From Bacilli bacterium (GTDB taxonomy: Bacteria; Bacillota_I; Bacilli_A; RFN20; CAG-826), in NCBI GenBank assembly GCA_024409055.1, contig JAKSUL010000002.1:20217-84216 (forward strand): DNA of 64,000 bases, read 5' to 3'. Below the pieces are notes generated by a model, which saw nothing but the letters and a program-made list of their open reading frames with translations, was not told the DNA's origin and searched no databases. Positions 22,215-53,327 of the stretch are shown in pieces; position 1 is the first letter of the stretch; every line of letters begins with the position of its first letter. The translations under genes were made by a program, and so were the position numbers.

Positions 22215-22545
22215 ATCCGACCCTGTAAGCCATGTTATGTCGAGGGCGACTATTTATCTCAGATTGCTCTGGCGTCTTTAGCTTCAATTCGCCTCGGACG
22301 CTTCCCCTACCAAATTTGGGTTTCTCGCTTGCGGGGTTTGCCTCGTTTCATCTTAACGTCGCCGTTAAGCTCGTCTCTGTGGCACCTTAGGGATTCCCGA
22401 CTCAAGAGTCGTTCCTCCGCCGTTACGCTCTCCAGCGTACCTAGGGTTATTTATTGCCCTAGCACAATCACTACGGCCATCGCAGGCCGTGCGAGCATGG
22501 ACTTTCCTCTACCTAACAAGTAGGCAGCGGTCGCCTGGGTCGGAT
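22215..22545 (-). ncRNA. rnpB: RNase P RNA (B-type)
   Basis: Minus strand carries GAGGAAAGTCCATGCT, AAACCCAAATTTGGTAGGGGAA and ACATAACATGGCTTAC; terminal ATCCGACCC/GGGTCGGAT P1 stem; follows gpsB/divIVA as in Bacillus. Confidence 0.95.
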
Positions 22546-30070: not shown

Positions 30071-30082
30071 GACCAATAACGC

Positions 30083-30206
30083 ATTCTTTAATTCCGGACT
30101 TTACCGTTGGCCCCGGAATTTCACCGGATCATGCCATCTCTTTTTTTGAGACAGCTCGCGGGCTTTACCGCCAGTCGACGTAATTCTCGTCGCCCTGAAG
30201 CATCTT
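30083..30206 (-). promoter_or_regulatory. FMN riboswitch (RFN element)
   Basis: CTTCAGGGCG...ACTGGCGGTAAAGCCCGCGA...GATCCGGTGAAATTCCGGGGCCAACGGTAAAGTCCGGAATTAAAGAA. Confidence 0.93.
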
Positions 30207-47148: not shown

Positions 47149-47476
47149 GGGGCTAGTTTGAAGCAAATCACCCGGGATGTGCGGAACGAAGTTCTCGCCG
47201 ACCGATAGAGACAAATAGGGATCAATCTCAAATTAGCATAGCGCGATGGATGTGTTAGGTCGCGCTAATGCGGACAGTATCGCCCAAGCCAAAAGAGGAT
47301 GCCTTCAGGAACGTTCCGTAAATCCGGGGCCTGAATTAATCGATGGTGACGCTCCGCACAAGATGTAGATCTTGAGCATGTGGCCATCCCAAGGAGGATG
47401 AAACACCAGTAGCCATGGTTCGCCTAAGTGCGAGCAGTTGGCTGCAAAAGGTGTTTTCGTTGTGGGATGGTTTTTC
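47149..47476 (+). ncRNA. Candidate large structured RNA or cis-regulatory leader of unknown family
   Basis: TATAAT at 47140-47145; stems 47178-85/47353-60, 47236-46/47260-71, 47304-09/47330-35; 87-nt rod 47384-47470 followed by a T tract; no convincing ORF. Confidence 0.65.
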
Positions 47477-47523
47477 TTTCCTTTCGTGAACGCCTAATTA
47501 GTTCAAAGGAAGGAGAAATATAC

Positions 47524-48441
47524 ATGCAAAATCTTGAATTAATTAAATTTGTAAATGGTGGCACTGAACTTGAAGTAAATGTCTCACCGGAAGAAAACAC
47601 GGTTTGGCTCTCAAGAGATCAAATGGCGGCACTTTTTAATAGAGACAGAACCGTAATTTCAAGGCACATAAAATCGGTTTTAACCGAAGAAGAACTCGAG
47701 GAAAAAAGCAACGTGCATTTTTTGCACATTCCAAATTCCGACAAATCGGTAGCATTTTTCAGTCTAGACGTAATTCTCTTGGTAGGATACCGCGTCAAAT
47801 CCAAAAACGGCATCCTTTTCAGAAAATGGGCGAGCAATATCCTCAAAGATTACATGATCAAGGGGTATGTGGCTAATGAGAGGCGCCTTTCTGCTCTCAA
47901 TAAAACGATCGAATTGCAATCAAAAATCATCGCCACTGCTTATGAGATTGATTCCAACGACGTCAAGAAGGTCGTCGATTCTTATATCGATGCCCTAACG
48001 CTTTTGGACAGTTACGATCATCAATGTGTTCCAGAACTCAAAAAAGATGAGAACTATGTTCAGCTAACATCAAGCGACATAAGAACCATCATCAAAAACA
48101 TGGAGTACTATGGCAAAAGCGATGTCTTCGGTGTAGAAAAAGAAAAAGGAAAAATCGATGGAATTCTCGGGGCAGTTTATCAAAACGTCTTTGGCCAAGA
48201 GGTTTATCCGTCAATTAAAGAAAAGGCTGCGCATCTACTCTATTTCATGGTTAAGGATCATCCCTTCGCTGACGGATGCAAAAGGATTGCGGCCGCTTCG
48301 TTTTTAACATTCTTGGCAAAAAACAAAGCATTGAATCCAAAACTATCTTCACCTGTTCTAGTTGCCGTTACCTTGCTTACGGCAGAGTCAAACCCAAAGG
48401 ATTTCAAATCAATCATAAAAGTGATTGCAAACATCATTTAA
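47524..48441 (+). CDS. RhuM-like N-terminal domain + Fic/Doc domain protein
   Basis: TVWLSRDQMAALF...SVAFFSLDVILLVGYRVKS...FRKWA; HPFADGCKRIAA Doc-type motif; SD AAGGAG before ATG at 47524. Confidence 0.85.
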   Translation: MQNLELIKFVNGGTELEVNVSPEENTVWLSRDQMAALFNRDRTVISRHIKSVLTEEELEEKSNVHFLHIPNSDKSVAFFSLDVILLVGYRVKSKNGILFRKWASNILKDYMIKGYVANERRLSALNKTIELQSKIIATAYEIDSNDVKKVVDSYIDALTLLDSYDHQCVPELKKDENYVQLTSSDIRTIIKNMEYYGKSDVFGVEKEKGKIDGILGAVYQNVFGQEVYPSIKEKAAHLLYFMVKDHPFADGCKRIAAASFLTFLAKNKALNPKLSSPVLVAVTLLTAESNPKDFKSIIKVIANII

Positions 48442-48529: not shown

Positions 48530-48889
48530 TCAATATTTAAATGTCGGGGCGATGTGAAATAAACACGAGTTTGCTTCGAGCGTCTTCTTTTTTTCAAGAA
48601 TCTCCGTGGCTGACCCTCGAAAGAGAATTCCCCCTGATTTCAGAAAGGTTTTGCTCGCAGCAAAATTCATGCCGGTGCTTTTTGATATGACTTTGATCTG
48701 CTCCATCGTGGGATTCTCAAAAGGCTCAATACAAATCGAATACACCGTATCGTCGAGATCGATTTCTTCCCATTTTGTAGTGGCAATTTTGCATCCACAC
48801 TTGGGGCATGAAAGATTCAATGCTGGCTTCTCGTATTCTTGAAGCATTTCGGCACCGCAATCGGGGCAAATGTATTTATTGCTTTCCAT
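48530..48889 (-). CDS. Zn-ribbon + L7/L12-CTD-like small protein (immunity-like)
   Basis: CPDCG...CPKCG, then IKVISKSTGMNFAASKTFL; start MESNKY. Confidence 0.55.
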   Translation of the reverse strand: MESNKYICPDCGAEMLQEYEKPALNLSCPKCGCKIATTKWEEIDLDDTVYSICIEPFENPTMEQIKVISKSTGMNFAASKTFLKSGGILFRGSATEILEKKKTLEANSCLFHIAPTFKY

Positions 48890-49625
48890 CTTGGTTCCTT
48901 TCAATTTCTTGAAGGCTCTTAACAGTTTTTAATTCTTCGATCGTGTGATAAGAATATGCGTATCTTTCCACTTCGTAGCCATCTAATGTGGTGTATCGAT
49001 CTTCACTGATACTTTTAACACTTATGGAATCTGCGATTATCCCCTGCAGGTACTGAGGTTTGCTTCTGCTGTAGCAAGAAGCCAAAACAAGAGAATTCCT
49101 GAAATATTTGGAGTGTTTTGATATGAAATCGGAATTGACACGAAGCCCAATCTTTTTAAGCAAGAAGTACATAAACACACCAATGCTTCTCGTGTTTCCC
49201 TCCCTAAAGCAGTGTATCTGCCATAACTGCTGAATAATACTTGAGGCTTTCAATACTTTTTCCTTGGCAGAAAGGGAATCCCACTTAATCGCCAGGAACT
49301 CCTTTTCCAAATCGCCCATCTCTTTTTCTATATAAGAAGCAGGCGTGTAGTCAACCGAAGCTCCCTCTAAAATGGGCTCACTCTTATAAATGGTTATGCT
49401 TCTGAATTCTCCAGCCCATTCAAAGATCGGAGAAAATAAAAACGCATGTATTTTCTTTATATCGTAGACGGAATTGATCTCGAATCCATTCTTTCTTAGA
49501 GCGATGATTCTAGCCGGCACAATATCACTCTCGAATCGTTCTAGCACAGACCGATTATCAATTCCCAATTTGTTTTTCAAAACCCCGGTTTGTTCATCAA
49601 CATATGGATCGTGAGCCTTAGACAT
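48876..49625 (-). CDS. Fic family AMPylase toxin
   Basis: DPYVDEQTGVLKNKL, WAGEFR, HCFREGNTRS Fic motif; start MSKAHD. Confidence 0.9.
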   Translation of the reverse strand: MSKAHDPYVDEQTGVLKNKLGIDNRSVLERFESDIVPARIIALRKNGFEINSVYDIKKIHAFLFSPIFEWAGEFRSITIYKSEPILEGASVDYTPASYIEKEMGDLEKEFLAIKWDSLSAKEKVLKASSIIQQLWQIHCFREGNTRSIGVFMYFLLKKIGLRVNSDFISKHSKYFRNSLVLASCYSRSKPQYLQGIIADSISVKSISEDRYTTLDGYEVERYAYSYHTIEELKTVKSLQEIERNQDGKQ

Positions 49626-49938
49626 TTTGGTACATCCTCCTGATCGCGAATTCATAAGTCTCTAGATCTATTACGCCCTCTTGAAAGAGCCCAAGAAGTT
49701 TTTTCGCCTTATCAGATGGAGCCTTGGAATCAACAGTGCTGATGCCGATTGCAAAATCCACAAGATTATCAGAATCTGGTAACGATATCTCAAAGGGAAT
49801 CCCCTTCCTCAGGGACACTTGGTTCAGGAACAAAGAAATCGCGTAGCTAGTCGTAATACCCAACTTATCGAAAATAACTTCGCATTCTTTTTTGACATCC
49901 GGCGACACTCTGGTGTGCACAATTGAACTTTTTTCCAT
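49618..49938 (-). CDS. RelB/DinJ-type RHH antitoxin fused to a VbhA/FicA-like helical domain
   Basis: VHTRVSPDVK..CEVIFDKLGIT.S.AI.LFL.QV....GIPFEI, then FAIGISTVDSKAPS...FQEGVIDLE. Confidence 0.75.
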   Translation of the reverse strand: MEKSSIVHTRVSPDVKKECEVIFDKLGITTSYAISLFLNQVSLRKGIPFEISLPDSDNLVDFAIGISTVDSKAPSDKAKKLLGLFQEGVIDLETYEFAIRRMYQNV

Positions 49939-49985: not shown

Positions 49986-50098
49986 TGAACTCAATTGAAA
50001 AAGCCTCAGATCTCTCCGAGGCTATTGCCCTATGTGATGGGCCAAGCGACTCAGAATACGAACCGCTCAGATTTGTTGTCGAGATTACGCTTAAAAGA

Positions 50099-50560
50099 TT
50101 AATAAAATATTTCGTTATCGGATACGGAGGAAACAATGTCCTCAATCGTCTTGTCGATAATTACGAACGATCGGATCGAGTCGAGGGATTCAAAATCAGC
50201 AGTAAACACGTTATCCGATCCAAGACCATATTTTTTATCTCCATCTCGTTCATCAATTGCGGAGATTGTATAGAAGACATCTTTGTAATTGAATGAAACA
50301 TCAAATCCTTGAGATATCAGTTTTAAGAAAACATCAATGTGCTGAGATCTGGCTCCTTTCGTTCTATCGATTATCTCACCTATTTCGATAATGTGAGTAT
50401 GCGGGACTTTATGCGTATCCGGCCTACCATGATCCGTATAATCTACATCTTTATACGCGTTCCCGTTTTCATCGTAATGCCTAATTCGAATCACTTTCCC
50501 TTGTTCATCAACCTGCTCAATCGTTGAATTTGGGGTCGATGCGCCTCGGCACAGTCGCAA
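50099..50560 (-). pseudogene. Polymorphic-toxin tip (Ntox24-like) read in frame with an immunity-like ORF; 5'-truncated
   Basis: PNS...RHYDENG.AYKDVDYTDHGRPDTHKVPHTH; internal SD AAAGGAG before the second half; in-frame TGA immediately upstream. Confidence 0.55.
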
Positions 50561-50596
50561 TCAAAACTGCTGCAATGAATACGGTTTTTGTTTTTG

Positions 50597-50956
50597 CTAT
50601 TTTTGCGCGGAGTTGACAACCAGAAGGTAAGATTCCTTGCTCTTTGGCAATAGCATTAACGACAATTCGTCCCTAATATCATATGAATAAATGTTTTCAA
50701 TGACGCCGACCTCGATTACGTCTTTGCAATACTGGTCAGAAGAGGTGACACACTCTTCTATAAAAGAATAGATATCGCTGAGTTCTTCACTGATTTTTTT
50801 CTCGAAACAAGCTAGGAAATACGGCATGAAGACATCTTCTAAGACGACAATCGAGCCGGTATCGATTCCGTCTTGCCATGAGGTCTCCTTATCAAAAGAA
50901 CCTTTGATGTTTGGAAATCTGTTTAAAAGCATGGAGTTAAATTCTCTTGAATCCAT
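50597..50956 (-). CDS. Small acidic immunity-like protein (DUF7674-like, tentative)
   Basis: Stop/start overlap with the upstream toxin-like ORF; RFP...SWQDG..TG..VV.EDVFMPY. Confidence 0.55.
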   Translation of the reverse strand: MDSREFNSMLLNRFPNIKGSFDKETSWQDGIDTGSIVVLEDVFMPYFLACFEKKISEELSDIYSFIEECVTSSDQYCKDVIEVGVIENIYSYDIRDELSLMLLPKSKESYLLVVNSAQK

Positions 50957-51342
50957 TAGTATTCTCCTTTCAATGATTTTTCCATTTTCGATAAAAGTCT
51001 TTCTCCAAAAGCGCGATCTGTAGGGCTTAATTCTTCTTTCGCTAATATCCTCTGCAAATTGACAATACGCTGCTCGATTTTGATGATGTGATTCCTACCC
51101 CCGACAAGTTCACCAGTTTTTACCTGTTTGCTTGCGGCTGCCATCGCACTTCCATCACCAACTTCCGCTCCTTCCCGGTAGAGCTCGCCGACGAGATTTT
51201 TCAATCTTTGATTGTTTACGGACTCTTGGATCGCAATGCCTCTGTCCGATACCCTTTTTGCCGCAAAGGTTTGAATATCGAGAATTAATCGGAATTTTTT
51301 GGCTGCTCCAACGAAAGAAAAGAGGGTGGTTTTACCTTTCAT
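50956..51342 (-). CDS. Stand-alone polymorphic-toxin-like domain with an N-terminal Prp-type cleavage motif
   Basis: SD GGAGGTG; LILDIQTFA-AK motif; LYREGAEVGDGS...TGELVGGRNH. Confidence 0.55.
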   Translation of the reverse strand: MKGKTTLFSFVGAAKKFRLILDIQTFAAKRVSDRGIAIQESVNNQRLKNLVGELYREGAEVGDGSAMAAASKQVKTGELVGGRNHIIKIEQRIVNLQRILAKEELSPTDRAFGERLLSKMEKSLKGEY

Positions 51343-52036
51343 CGGTTTTCACCTCCGAAAGTCTTCTTTCCCTGTCTTTCTTATTCTCCTTCATCGTATA
51401 GGAGTCATATTGGTAGACCGGAATATCCTTGAGTCTTGCAATGCCGAAGATATCGTCAGAGGCCGGTCCATAGACAATAATGCCCGTTGGTTCCAGCTCA
51501 CCGATTATTTTATCGACCTGCTCAGCGAATATCCACCTATTGTCCAGACGATGCGTGAATCCATGGGTTCCAATGGCGATAAGCGTATGCTTGGGGAATG
51601 CCTCCAGGCACGACAAGGTTCTGTCGTCCCCGATCCTGACGTTTGGAATCACCTTCATGCCGCGGGAGCCGTAATAATAGGTGATGGCGAGATTTAGATA
51701 GATCTGGCTCTTTTGGACCACAAGTGGCATGTTGTCGTATGGGCTTGGGTCAACCCCAACGATGCACGCGTACTTCGATAGTTTCTCAACATATCTTTTG
51801 GGATTATTGAGAATCGGGGTGAATCCCTCGTCGTTGCAATAGAAGCACATGCCGGTAGTCGAAGGATCGACGACGTCTTTTCTTCTGTCCCACTGAATTA
51901 TTTCTTTGGGTGGCTCGGTGGCGACCATCCATCTTTCTCTGACCGGGTAGTTGTCGGTCGGAGTGCGGTTTGCCCCGTCAATCAGGTACGCAAGATAAAG
52001 ATCCCTGACGTAAGGCGTCTTTGATTTCTTAATCAT
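51332..52036 (-). CDS. DUF4417 family protein
   Basis: FYCND, PDPS-like DPSPY, GMKVIPNVRIGD...PKHTLIAIGTHG, IIVYG; start MIKKSK. Confidence 0.75.
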   Translation of the reverse strand: MIKKSKTPYVRDLYLAYLIDGANRTPTDNYPVRERWMVATEPPKEIIQWDRRKDVVDPSTTGMCFYCNDEGFTPILNNPKRYVEKLSKYACIVGVDPSPYDNMPLVVQKSQIYLNLAITYYYGSRGMKVIPNVRIGDDRTLSCLEAFPKHTLIAIGTHGFTHRLDNRWIFAEQVDKIIGELEPTGIIVYGPASDDIFGIARLKDIPVYQYDSYTMKENKKDRERRLSEVKTDER

Positions 52037-52157
52037 ATGAATAATAACTTTCCGGCACATTTTGCGTGCCTAAAATGGTTGGATATGCTACTATTCACCT
52101 GCTATCGATGTGCTTCAGCATATCCGCAACCGTATCCACTGCAATGGATGCGGTTTT

Positions 52158-52736
52158 TTAGTTCTTTAGGTATTTCTTTATATCTTCGCCGATAAATTCA
52201 CCTCCAAGTTTTTCGTGACGGCATTCCGCGCATCCTCTTGAGACACAATAGGTCTTTCTGATCTGTTCGGCGGTCATGCCCCTGGCGACGGCTGCCGGCA
52301 TAAGGAATTCCGATGCAAACCTATCGGCCTGCCATTCGGGATCTTCGAATACACGCGGCTTTCTTTCGCTCGTCGACCTTGCGAGGCTCACGCCTCCAAG
52401 CATCCTGTGAAGGGCGAAATGCCCTATCTCGTGGCAAATCGTGAACGGGGCCCTCTTGTATTTATGACGGCAGGCCTCGTGCATCACGGATTCCTTGATG
52501 TAAATCATCCCTGACGAGATGTCGGTTTTTGCCTCTTCCCCTTTTTCGAAAACGGGGTCATCGTCAGGCATTACCATGTATTGGAATCCATAGTCTTCCC
52601 AGAGAACGCAAAGAGCATCCAAAAGCTTGGGGGCATTGATTCTCTCATTGTCACTAAGCTTTAGGAATCGCCTTACATCTTGGGCGATGTTCCTAATCTC
52701 GACAATCTTTAAAGGTTTTGCGTAAACATAGCCCAT
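52158..52736 (-). CDS. ImmA/IrrE family metallo-endopeptidase
   Basis: FTICHEIGH (HExxH), PEWQADRFASEFLMP; start MGYVYA. Confidence 0.88.
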   Translation of the reverse strand: MGYVYAKPLKIVEIRNIAQDVRRFLKLSDNERINAPKLLDALCVLWEDYGFQYMVMPDDDPVFEKGEEAKTDISSGMIYIKESVMHEACRHKYKRAPFTICHEIGHFALHRMLGGVSLARSTSERKPRVFEDPEWQADRFASEFLMPAAVARGMTAEQIRKTYCVSRGCAECRHEKLGGEFIGEDIKKYLKN

Positions 52737-53092
52737 CAATCGCCCTCCTTCAGGATAGACAGAACCTTTTCGCACTCTTCCTCGCTCATGCCGGGAAGTT
52801 TTCTCGCAAGCATGACTGCAAGATCCCTTTGGAGCGGCAAAGCGCTGGCAAGAGATATGTCAATCGAGGAAACGGAATGGTCCAAAGCGACCAGGAGTTC
52901 ATCGGTTGTTTTTTTGCTGAGCCTGTATTTGTGAGAGAGTTTCTCGATGAAGCCCTCCGGAACGGCTCTCGTGCCGGTCTCGATTGCAGAAAGATAAGAC
53001 AGGGAGATCTCCATCTTCTTAGCCATGGCGGCCATGTTCTCGTCCTTCTCGATTCTCAGCTTTCTGAGCGCCTTTCCAAATTCAGTTGTCAT
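52736..53092 (-). CDS. XRE family HTH transcriptional regulator
   Basis: FGKALRKLR...MAKKMEISLSYLSAIETG; stop overlaps the ImmA/IrrE start. Confidence 0.88.
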   Translation of the reverse strand: MTTEFGKALRKLRIEKDENMAAMAKKMEISLSYLSAIETGTRAVPEGFIEKLSHKYRLSKKTTDELLVALDHSVSSIDISLASALPLQRDLAVMLARKLPGMSEEECEKVLSILKEGD

Positions 53093-53242: not shown

Positions 53243-53327
53243 TGGTGGGCCCAACAGGAATCGAACCTGCACGGATCGCTCCACTAGATCCTAAGTCTAG
53301 CGCGTCTACCAGTTCCGCCATAGGCCC
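53243..53327 (-). tRNA. tRNA-Leu (anticodon TAG)
   Basis: GGGCCTA acceptor stem, CTTAGGA anticodon loop, long variable arm, GGTTCGATTCC, encoded CCA. Confidence 0.95.

Follow-up and report, generated by a model that had tools for sequence, protein, structure and literature searches.

A probable DUF4417-linked polymorphic toxin-immunity module with a short tag and exchanged cassettes in a Bacilli genome

Polymorphic toxin systems, among them Rhs, CdiA-CT/CdiI, LXG and MafB (Zhang et al., 2012; PMC3482391), unite a conserved N-terminal part with unrelated, variable toxin domains, and immediately downstream they carry a cognate immunity gene which co-varies with the toxin. The MuF toxins are phage-associated and likewise have small immunity open reading frames (ORFs) downstream (Jamet et al., 2017, PMC5576092; Zhang et al., 2012). 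Here we describe a locus that shares these traits in a 64,000-nucleotide stretch of the genome of a Bacilli bacterium (GTDB lineage CAG-826; GenBank assembly GCA_024409055.1, contig JAKSUL010000002.1, positions 20,217 to 84,216 of the forward strand), referred to below as the window: a gene for DUF4417, a domain of unknown function, is followed by a toxin gene (toxin-1), whose product begins with an eight-residue tag, and by an immunity gene (immunity-1).

A first reading of this DNA from its letters alone (the sequence-only reading) had proposed DUF4417 as the constant core of an undescribed polymorphic system in which effector/immunity cassettes are swapped. Our analysis makes the existence of a DUF4417-linked polymorphic toxin-immunity system highly probable, and we put at roughly 55% the probability that the locus in the window is one copy of a mobile, three-part module of this kind, consisting of DUF4417, a tagged toxin and an immunity gene. 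Neither DUF4417 nor the tag is mentioned by Jamet et al. (2017, PMC5576092) or Zhang et al. (2012, PMC3482391), a full-text literature search for DUF4417/PF14386 returned no paper linking the domain to toxins, and the papers on MuF, on S8-PTS and by Zhang et al. (2012) describe other systems; in the literature searched, the system does appear to be undescribed.

The tag, the toxin bodies and their immunity partners

DUF4417 loci were gathered in three independent ways: by look-ups of contigs encoding the exact protein, by a Pfam search of 41 related genomes, and by a pattern scan. The scan, which took one genome per species, gave 80 loci from Bacilli metagenome-assembled genomes (MAGs), Erysipelotrichaceae, Lachnospiraceae (including Eubacterium ruminantium ATCC 17233 and Pseudobutyrivibrio) and Clostridia; a separate set of 19 loci came from the genomes of relatives, and the Pfam search found the domain in 17 of its 41 genomes, often in several copies. 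Of the 74 loci with sequence available downstream, 66 have a tagged ORF of about 100-180 amino acids abutting DUF4417; it starts at -13, -10 or -3 nucleotides (nt) from the DUF4417 stop codon, and its product begins with MKG[KNSY]xxLF or, in a deeper clade, with MATKGASxRYGN. In the relatives' genomes such an ORF is present at 15 of the 19 loci, with MGGRGS, MGSGS and MASRGS as additional tags. The recurrence of a tagged ORF after DUF4417 is far beyond chance.

When the first 15 residues were trimmed and the remaining toxin bodies clustered, at least seven mutually unrelated families emerged behind the tag. The largest of these, T0, is Ntox24-like (26 loci); T1 (18 loci) has a His...Cys signature and is weakly Peptidase_C80-like; T2 (10 loci) and T3 (7 loci) have no curated Pfam match; T4 is the type of toxin-1 in the window; and T5 and T6 match Ntox50 (6e-13) and Ntox28 (4e-9), both above their Pfam cut-offs. 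There are singleton bodies too, including DUF6883 (3e-9) and a PBECR1-like domain. Each toxin family pairs strictly one to one with an immunity family, T0-T6 with I0-I6, the pairs being counted at 23 loci for T0-I0, 15 for T1-I1, 10 for T2-I2, five for T3-I3, two for T4-I4 and two for T5-I5. I4 is DUF7674, which also follows a T4-type toxin in loci L024/L084 and L055; I6 is CdiI_3 (4e-18), and I2 is Cys_rich_CPCC (4e-17). None of the immunity representatives matches a DNA-binding family at the Pfam cut-off, I1 giving only sub-threshold zinc-ribbon matches.

A maximum-likelihood tree was built from 88 DUF4417 proteins. Along it the tag class shifts four times, against a mean of 23 on shuffling, and the toxin class shifts 15 times, 12 of these inside the clade with the MKG tag. 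One toxin family may stand behind several tags: T0 occurs with MKG, MASRG and MGxxG, and T3 with MKG and MGxxG. Between the window and a related locus, L002, the DUF4417 proteins are 93% identical, yet the toxins belong to T4 and T0, respectively, and the DNA homology (87% identity, blastn) breaks off exactly after tag codon 8. The effector/immunity cassettes expected around DUF4417 thus do recur, with one-to-one pairs and variable toxin bodies, in support of DUF4417 as their constant core. One expectation did not hold: the LxLQxF leader, thought to be a recurring feature of the small ORFs, is present in only two of about 90 toxins, and the element common to them is the tag.

At three further loci (L096-L098, DUF4417 about 43% identical) there is no tagged ORF; a conserved ORF of 42-44 amino acids (MLVEEDK...STIHGQKILIS) lies 18-24 nt downstream, and may be another partner or a decayed cassette.

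The operon in the window and its orphan cassettes

All genes of the operon are read from the minus strand. DUF4417 (51332..52036; Pfam PF14386, 1e-30, 107 bits against a gathering threshold of 28.9) has 234 amino acids, as in most homologues, with a longer ORF running from 52060. Its 3' end overlaps by 11 nt with the gene for toxin-1 (50956..51342; 128 amino acids), in which the tag MKGKTTLF is followed by a spacer, a Prp-type site and a core of about 90 residues. The tag codons (51319..51342), delimited by blastn and by the table of tags, fall partly within the DUF4417 3' end, an arrangement in which the toxin ORF is probably translationally coupled to DUF4417. A TAATG overlap connects toxin-1 to immunity-1 (50597..50956; 119 amino acids), the DUF7674 protein (Pfam 7e-13; 49 bits, cut-off 27). 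Beyond a gap of 36 nt lies a fused ORF (50560-50099), in which an orphan, Ntox24-like toxin-2 core (50345..50560) continues in frame into immunity-2 (50099..50344), a member of the I0 family that has 81 amino acids elsewhere, and a terminator scan placed an intrinsic terminator at the operon end (50002..50023, minus strand).

Upstream of DUF4417 are a CapH-like XRE-family helix-turn-helix (HTH) repressor of 118 amino acids (52736..53092; Pfam HTH_31, E=3e-7; PADLOC capH, 7e-7), a homologue of which, also of 118 amino acids, is found in L002, and a CapP-like ImmA/IrrE-type M78 metalloprotease of 192 amino acids with the motif HEIGH (52158..52736; Pfam Peptidase_M78, 2e-9; PADLOC capP, 9e-17). 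The two genes share an ATGA overlap, and a spacer of 97 nt separates the protease gene from DUF4417. A tRNA-Leu gene (53243..53327, minus strand; ARAGORN and Rfam) borders the islet. The sequence-only reading had the architecture right: the genes follow one another from DUF4417 through toxin-1, immunity-1 and the toxin-2 tip to immunity-2 within the exact limits it gave (50099-52036), they stand under the XRE and ImmA/IrrE pair it named, both members of which are found by Pfam, and from XRE to immunity-2 the junctions overlap or stay in frame as described, with the exception of the 97-nt spacer before DUF4417 and the 36-nt gap before the fused ORF.

Within the window we could not identify a second tRNA-Leu 3' end or convincing direct repeats that might mark an integration site, nor, from 46 to 56 kb, an integrase in the listed or scanned ORFs. 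Rfam matches only the tRNA at the operon, PADLOC has no model for DUF4417, toxin-1, toxin-2 or DUF7674, and NCBIfam gave no match for DUF4417, toxin-1 or DUF7674 and only chance-level, sub-threshold matches for the orphan ORF.

The core of toxin-1 carries the motif ELYRxGAxxGDGS...H..K; it belongs to no family in Pfam, NCBIfam, PHROG or PADLOC and has no sequence relative in the PDB. A profile built from three T4 toxins and searched against 1.84 billion cluster representatives matched 1807 of them at E<=1e-3, and in many cases the core forms the last 90 or so residues of a much longer protein, of up to 2322 amino acids. Ten of these long proteins were scanned with Pfam: three have RHS repeats (one of them also SpvB and TcdB_midN), one has the haemagglutinin-type DUF637, two have weak SH3 matches only, and four have no Pfam family. 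Toxin-1 thus appears to be a genuine toxin tip, with a core that also forms the C-terminal end of Rhs, CdiA-like and TcdB-type proteins.

Between the tag and this core sits the Prp-type leader. Residues 17-29 of toxin-1 (51256..51294, minus strand) read FRLILDIQTFA/AK, with the slash marking the site, and match the start of ribosomal protein L27 of the same host, MEFRLILDLQLFA/SKKG; the prp gene (PF04327, 4e-20) lies immediately upstream of the L27 gene, rpmA. Of all ORFs in a six-frame translation of the 1.78-Mb genome, only two contain the motif, L27 and toxin-1, and the same six-frame motif scan recovered no capsid or scaffold gene with a Prp leader. By hand alignment, 31 of 42 bases of the leader DNA are identical between toxin-1 and L27, and several of the differences are synonymous; it is therefore the peptide, rather than the DNA, that appears to be conserved. 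L27 is the natural substrate of Prp, and its tail extends to the ribosomal peptidyl-transferase centre. A cut after A27 of toxin-1, as predicted from the motif, would remove a 27-residue N-terminal part including the tag and would free a toxin of 101 amino acids. A decayed T4 orphan at locus L040 retains the tag and a Prp-type leader (MKGRSELF...LLFKLNIQLFA/SK), and the motif is absent from the other T4 toxins (L055, L084) and from every other toxin type examined; the Prp site is therefore a local refinement, and not a general signature of the toxins. The Prp motif noticed in the initial reading is accordingly real, matched to L27 and unique in the genome, and lacks generality, the two toxins that have it being toxin-1 and the L040 orphan.

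The tags MASRGSVAKNGR and MATKGASYRYGNTKGS (L018, L028, L031, L021, L099-L111) resemble the N-terminus of mature L27, ASKKGVGSTKNGRDS (L119:1465-1761), which could be compositional chance or mimicry.

Toxin-2 lacks a tag, about 41 N-terminal codons and a visible ribosome-binding site. Its match to Pfam Ntox24 (19.7 bits, cut-off 24, E=1e-3) falls below the cut-off; the motif H...PHxH is present, and the sequence matches the C-terminus of phrog_18811 'toxin' (2.5e-4). A full-length relative is kept in L002, where it has 114 amino acids, bears the tag MKGKSSLF, stands straight after DUF4417 and forms with its immunity gene an intact two-gene pair; in the window the two were fused by the loss of 1 nt, which removed the ATG of immunity-2. 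The 48 nt that follow DUF7674 (50545..50592, minus strand) are, by alignment and blastn, a degenerate copy of the leader usually found at DUF4417, and homology to the T0 toxin of L002 resumes right after this scar, at about codon 42. The orphan is therefore what remains of a second complete module, from which one deletion took away most of the leader, the DUF4417 gene and the toxin tag.

L002 itself has two modules in the reverse order and with a different deletion, and its homology to the module in the window begins inside the tRNA-Leu 3' end, at 53270. From these arrangements, modules seem to stack in tandem at tRNA genes and then to decay by deletion. A further ORF of the window (48530..48889, minus strand; 124 amino acids), with a zinc ribbon and a C-terminal domain, is 50% identical to the I1 protein that follows a His-Cys (C80-like) toxin in L005, and is by this similarity a third, orphan immunity gene, located beyond a RelB-Fic gene pair. 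Loci with extra cassettes are rare, at four of 56, the other 52 having single cassettes. The cassette array proposed for this locus is thus present, with two sets of genes, as an uncommon product of two tandem modules and a deletion. The broken second module of L002 (L002:7465-8724) comprises a tRNA-like fragment and an XRE pseudogene; of ImmA only the first 130 nt are left, joined directly to DUF7674, and then come another leader and a 5' fragment of DUF4417.

As to regulation, 34-35 of 63 loci have a pair of XRE and HExxH-protease genes directly upstream. The arrangement is like that of the CapH/CapP and ImmR/ImmA pairs, in which a co-oriented HTH repressor and an M78 HExxH metalloprotease stand directly upstream of the genes they regulate; the difference lies in the cargo, here a DUF4417-toxin-immunity operon and not a cyclic-oligonucleotide-based antiphage signalling system (CBASS) or an integrative and conjugative element (ICE). 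On the plus strand of the ImmA-DUF4417 spacer, antisense to the operon, the terminator scan found an 11-bp hairpin with a T-run (52128-52155), and by eye only a promoter-like TTTCCG-16-TAAAAT is visible at about 52048-52075; together they delimit a putative small RNA (52076..52161, plus strand) that would be antisense to the leader of the DUF4417 mRNA. Antisense terminator-like hairpins precede DUF4417 in 51 of 76 loci, compared with eight of 76 on the sense strand, with a similar loop (CACTGCAATG) and differing stems. In L005/L089 (5148-6031) and L013 (476-1213) the ImmA position is occupied by a longer protein of 227-245 amino acids with an HExxH-type motif (ATHECSHW, AHEGCHV), which Pfam does not call M78, and in L005 a 63-amino-acid ORF also lies ahead of DUF4417.

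Several other elements are found in the window. The DUF4417 operon and the orphan I1 gene are separated by a toxin-antitoxin pair in which a RelB/DinJ antitoxin (49618-49938, minus strand) overlaps a Fic/VbhT-like adenylyltransferase (48876-49655, minus strand; PDC-S04, 1e-41). A RhuM (COG3943) and Fic/Doc fusion gene (47428-48441; PADLOC candidate family PDC-S23, 4e-101) has at its 5' end the Rfam 'COG3943 RNA' motif (47348-47454, plus strand; 94 bits, gathering score 71.8). Housekeeping RNAs are represented by RNase P class B (22221-22542, minus strand) and an FMN riboswitch (30077-30205, minus strand).

DUF4417, its phage relatives and competing explanations

The AlphaFold (AF2) model of DUF4417, calculated from an alignment of 38 sequences, is of high confidence (pLDDT 90.4, pTM 0.86) and has a beta/alpha repeat fold resembling a triosephosphate isomerase (TIM) barrel. 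D69, D96 and G159 are invariant, and S98, P131 and N132 nearly so; these conserved residues directly follow the model strands 61-64, 91-93, 129-132 and 152-156, a placement that in the model is typical of the active site of barrel enzymes. The best Foldseek matches in the PDB are all TIM barrels, PdxJ at the top (probability 0.99, E=4e-3, TM 0.40) and EAL phosphodiesterases, GH5, alanine racemase and triosephosphate isomerase below it; for the two DUF4417 models searched, TM values were about 0.4 and E>=4e-3, with no match significant at 1e-3, and the PDB holds no sequence relative. A viral structure library returned homologues without names and faint matches to queuine tRNA-ribosyltransferase (TGT), and UVDE and AP-endonuclease matched faintly as well. 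The fold search therefore yielded a confident TIM-barrel-like model and no significant structural relative. We conclude from the model that DUF4417 is probably an enzyme-type protein, and a nucleotide- or DNA-directed enzyme, as had been suggested, would be compatible with the fold and with published fusions: phages join DUF4417 to ParB-CTPase domains, in a slot otherwise held by DNA methyltransferase domains (bioRxiv 10.1101/2025.10.10.680097).

DUF4417 is also widely distributed among phages and gut bacteria, with tblastn finding it in 317 phage records and 487 close homologues present in gut metagenomes. In actinophages the gene is followed by an MGGRGS-tagged ADP-ribosyltransferase toxin and then by a small ORF, so that phages of Actinobacteria and islets of Firmicutes have in common a triad made up of DUF4417, tagged toxin and small ORF. 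The actinophage tag precedes a long Gly linker, is unlike the MKG tag and tracks the DUF4417 clade. Streptococcus phages encode ParB-DUF4417 just ahead of the terminase, and in phage Faith1 a 118-amino-acid MGGRGGGGGG protein comes after DUF4417. In this Mycobacterium phage (L114, 2824-3876) the DUF4417 gene (gp115, 'nuclease') and gp116 are situated in the middle of a tRNA gene array.

In the reading we favour, the XRE repressor would silence the operon until ImmA cleaves it upon DNA damage or phage attack, as in ImmR/ImmA and CapH/CapP, with the antisense RNA as a second brake on DUF4417 and toxin. DUF4417 would then dock on or modify the tag, and the toxin would be passed to a carrier or export route; in the phage relatives the carrier would probably be the virion, because the triad opens the packaging/assembly operon. 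Host Prp would then trim the tag, and the 101-amino-acid toxin would poison cells that lack DUF7674. The immunity gene would protect kin, and retained orphan immunity genes would protect against the toxins of relatives. The parts of this scheme are not equally secure: that DUF4417 acts through the tag we hold at even odds, that the targets of the toxins are other cells and not the producer itself is a tentative proposal somewhat below that, and it is improbable, if worth considering, that the tag itself is the substrate of DUF4417, to be covalently modified or conjugated, for example to nucleic acid or another carrier.

A number of observations weigh against the scheme. ORF inspection and Pfam scans of the islet found no secretion signal, signal peptide, membrane protein or delivery machinery, and in the 97%-complete genome the Pfam models Terminase_6N, TerL_ATPase and Phage_portal had no match, with the limits that MAG binning can lose prophages and that other terminase and portal families exist. 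The islet lies amid the defence-type genes RelB-Fic (PDC-S04) and RhuM-Doc (PDC-S23), which an intracellular role would fit equally. An enzyme-like DUF4417 with invariant Asp residues is unexpected for a simple adaptor. Prp is cytosolic, and the tag would be lost before hand-off unless cleavage were delayed. A physical interaction of DUF4417 with the tag is itself a proposal.

One alternative is an intracellular defence or addiction module, either abortive infection or a three-part toxin-antitoxin system, in which the toxin stays in the cell; this we regard as possible and rather doubtful. Here XRE/ImmA and the antisense RNA would restrain the system until, under phage attack, DUF4417 as a sensor or activator docked on the tag frees the toxin, which would win despite the immunity protein and kill the infected cell, with effector swapping as the outcome of a phage arms race. 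The CapH/CapP-like regulators, the surrounding Fic and Doc toxins of PADLOC candidate defence families, the lack of export apparatus in the islet and of terminase or portal matches in the genome, and the prevalence of single cassettes would all suit such a module. However, the toxin domains and their immunity partners belong to families known from exported polymorphic toxins, orphan immunity genes are kept, and the order of a conserved N-terminal tag and then a processing site is the logic by which exported toxins are trafficked; a suicide toxin at the end of infection makes little sense in the late operons of the actinophage lytic cycle, and in contrast to classical antitoxins the immunity protein lacks a DNA-binding domain and is encoded downstream.

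Much less probable is an independent DUF4417, for instance a phage-derived DNA-modifying or anti-restriction enzyme, with a downstream site that serves as a landing place for morons and a common tag that is a mere recombination scar encoded in the overlap. The ParB-CTPase fusions and the TIM-barrel-like fold with its faint nuclease and TGT matches would fit this, as would the fact that the tag is partly encoded within the DUF4417 3' end. Against it, the pairing holds in chromosomal islets without other phage genes and from phages of Actinobacteria to Firmicutes; the tag is conserved as a peptide of eight residues, whereas the overlap encodes only three or four codons; it persists while the geometry of the overlap varies (-13, -10, -3, and +1 to +3); and the distinct actinophage tag with its Gly linker tracks the DUF4417 clade. 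We also considered that DUF4417 might be the N-terminal constant domain of a fusion made by programmed ribosomal frameshifting in the 11-nt overlap, a suggestion that we find barely credible and have rejected. The toxin ATG does lie in the +1 frame within GAT GAA AGG TAA, with a rare AGG codon beside the stop, and an overlap is kept in many loci. Yet toxins start at -13/-10 (+1 frame), at -3 (-1 frame, ATGA) or 1-3 nt past the stop, and with starts in different frames no single frameshift can be conserved; moreover every toxin ORF has its own ATG, and there is no slippery heptamer.

Implications and comparison with known systems

If the three-part toxin module that we favour is real, it would provide a role for the widespread DUF4417 and would constitute a new class of polymorphic toxins, in which a separate enzyme-like protein and an eight-residue tag replace a large trafficking domain. 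Should the tag prove to be the substrate of DUF4417, this would amount to a delivery route for interchangeable toxins that is independent of secretion systems and used alike by actinophages, by phages of Firmicutes and by chromosomal islets; in some versions host Prp would be the protease that releases the toxin. The tag is a simple handle with which to find unannotated toxin and immunity families, and the toxin-1 domain is without a Pfam model although about 1800 protein clusters, Rhs and CdiA-like toxins among them, contain it. To the general picture the window adds a Prp site matched to the host and placed between tag and toxin, suggesting that a protease of ribosomal-protein maturation has been borrowed for toxin processing, and a clear case of orphan cassettes derived from tandem modules. 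Cultured carriers, namely E. ruminantium ATCC 17233, Pseudobutyrivibrio and the cluster A phages of Mycobacterium smegmatis, would allow direct testing.

Short N-terminal handles are known from phage proteins: the internal proteins of phage T4 have an N-terminal capsid-targeting sequence that is cut off by the prohead protease, and the capsid and scaffold proteins of Staphylococcus aureus phage 80alpha are processed by Prp. The likeness is in the order of a short handle, a protease site and a mature protein that is released; the difference is that the genome here has no match to the three packaging-gene models and that the Prp site is confined to two of about 90 toxins.

With the MuF phage toxins (PMC5576092) there is an overlap in repertoire, comprising Ntox24, Ntox50 and ADP-ribosyltransferases, and the phage relatives of DUF4417 are found beside packaging genes. 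In contrast to MuF, the islet proteins have no MuF (Phage_Mu_F) match in Pfam and no fusion, DUF4417 is enzyme-like and not a head protein, and the module is also found on chromosomes, as an islet under XRE/ImmA that has no neighbouring capsid genes. In the S8-PTS of Gram-positive bacteria (Li, Tan and Zhang, 2022, PMC9424270) the enzyme is a subtilase that frees the toxin during Sec-dependent secretion, and the toxins combine a signal peptide with a BetaH domain; subtilase, signal peptide and BetaH are all absent from the DUF4417 module.

The polymorphic toxin systems at large (PMC3482391) have in common with the DUF4417 module the Ntox24-like, Ntox28 and Ntox50 domains and the toxin-1 core, and also the occurrence of orphan toxin tips and orphan immunity genes, here T0/I0 and I1. 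They differ in that their N-terminal domain ties them to type II, V, VI or VII secretion systems (T2/T5/T6/T7SS), to PVC or to MuF, whereas no known secretion system is linked to the DUF4417 module, in which an eight-residue tag takes the place of the trafficking domain, the toxins have just 100-180 amino acids, and the conserved protein, DUF4417, is a separate polypeptide, probably coupled in translation. Stand-alone Ntox24 pairs were seen as possible toxin-antitoxin systems by Zhang et al. (2012). Type II toxin-antitoxin systems, however, consist of two genes, the first usually encoding a DNA-binding antitoxin, and are autoregulated, whereas the DUF4417 module has its immunity gene downstream, a separate XRE/ImmA regulation and a third, constant gene.

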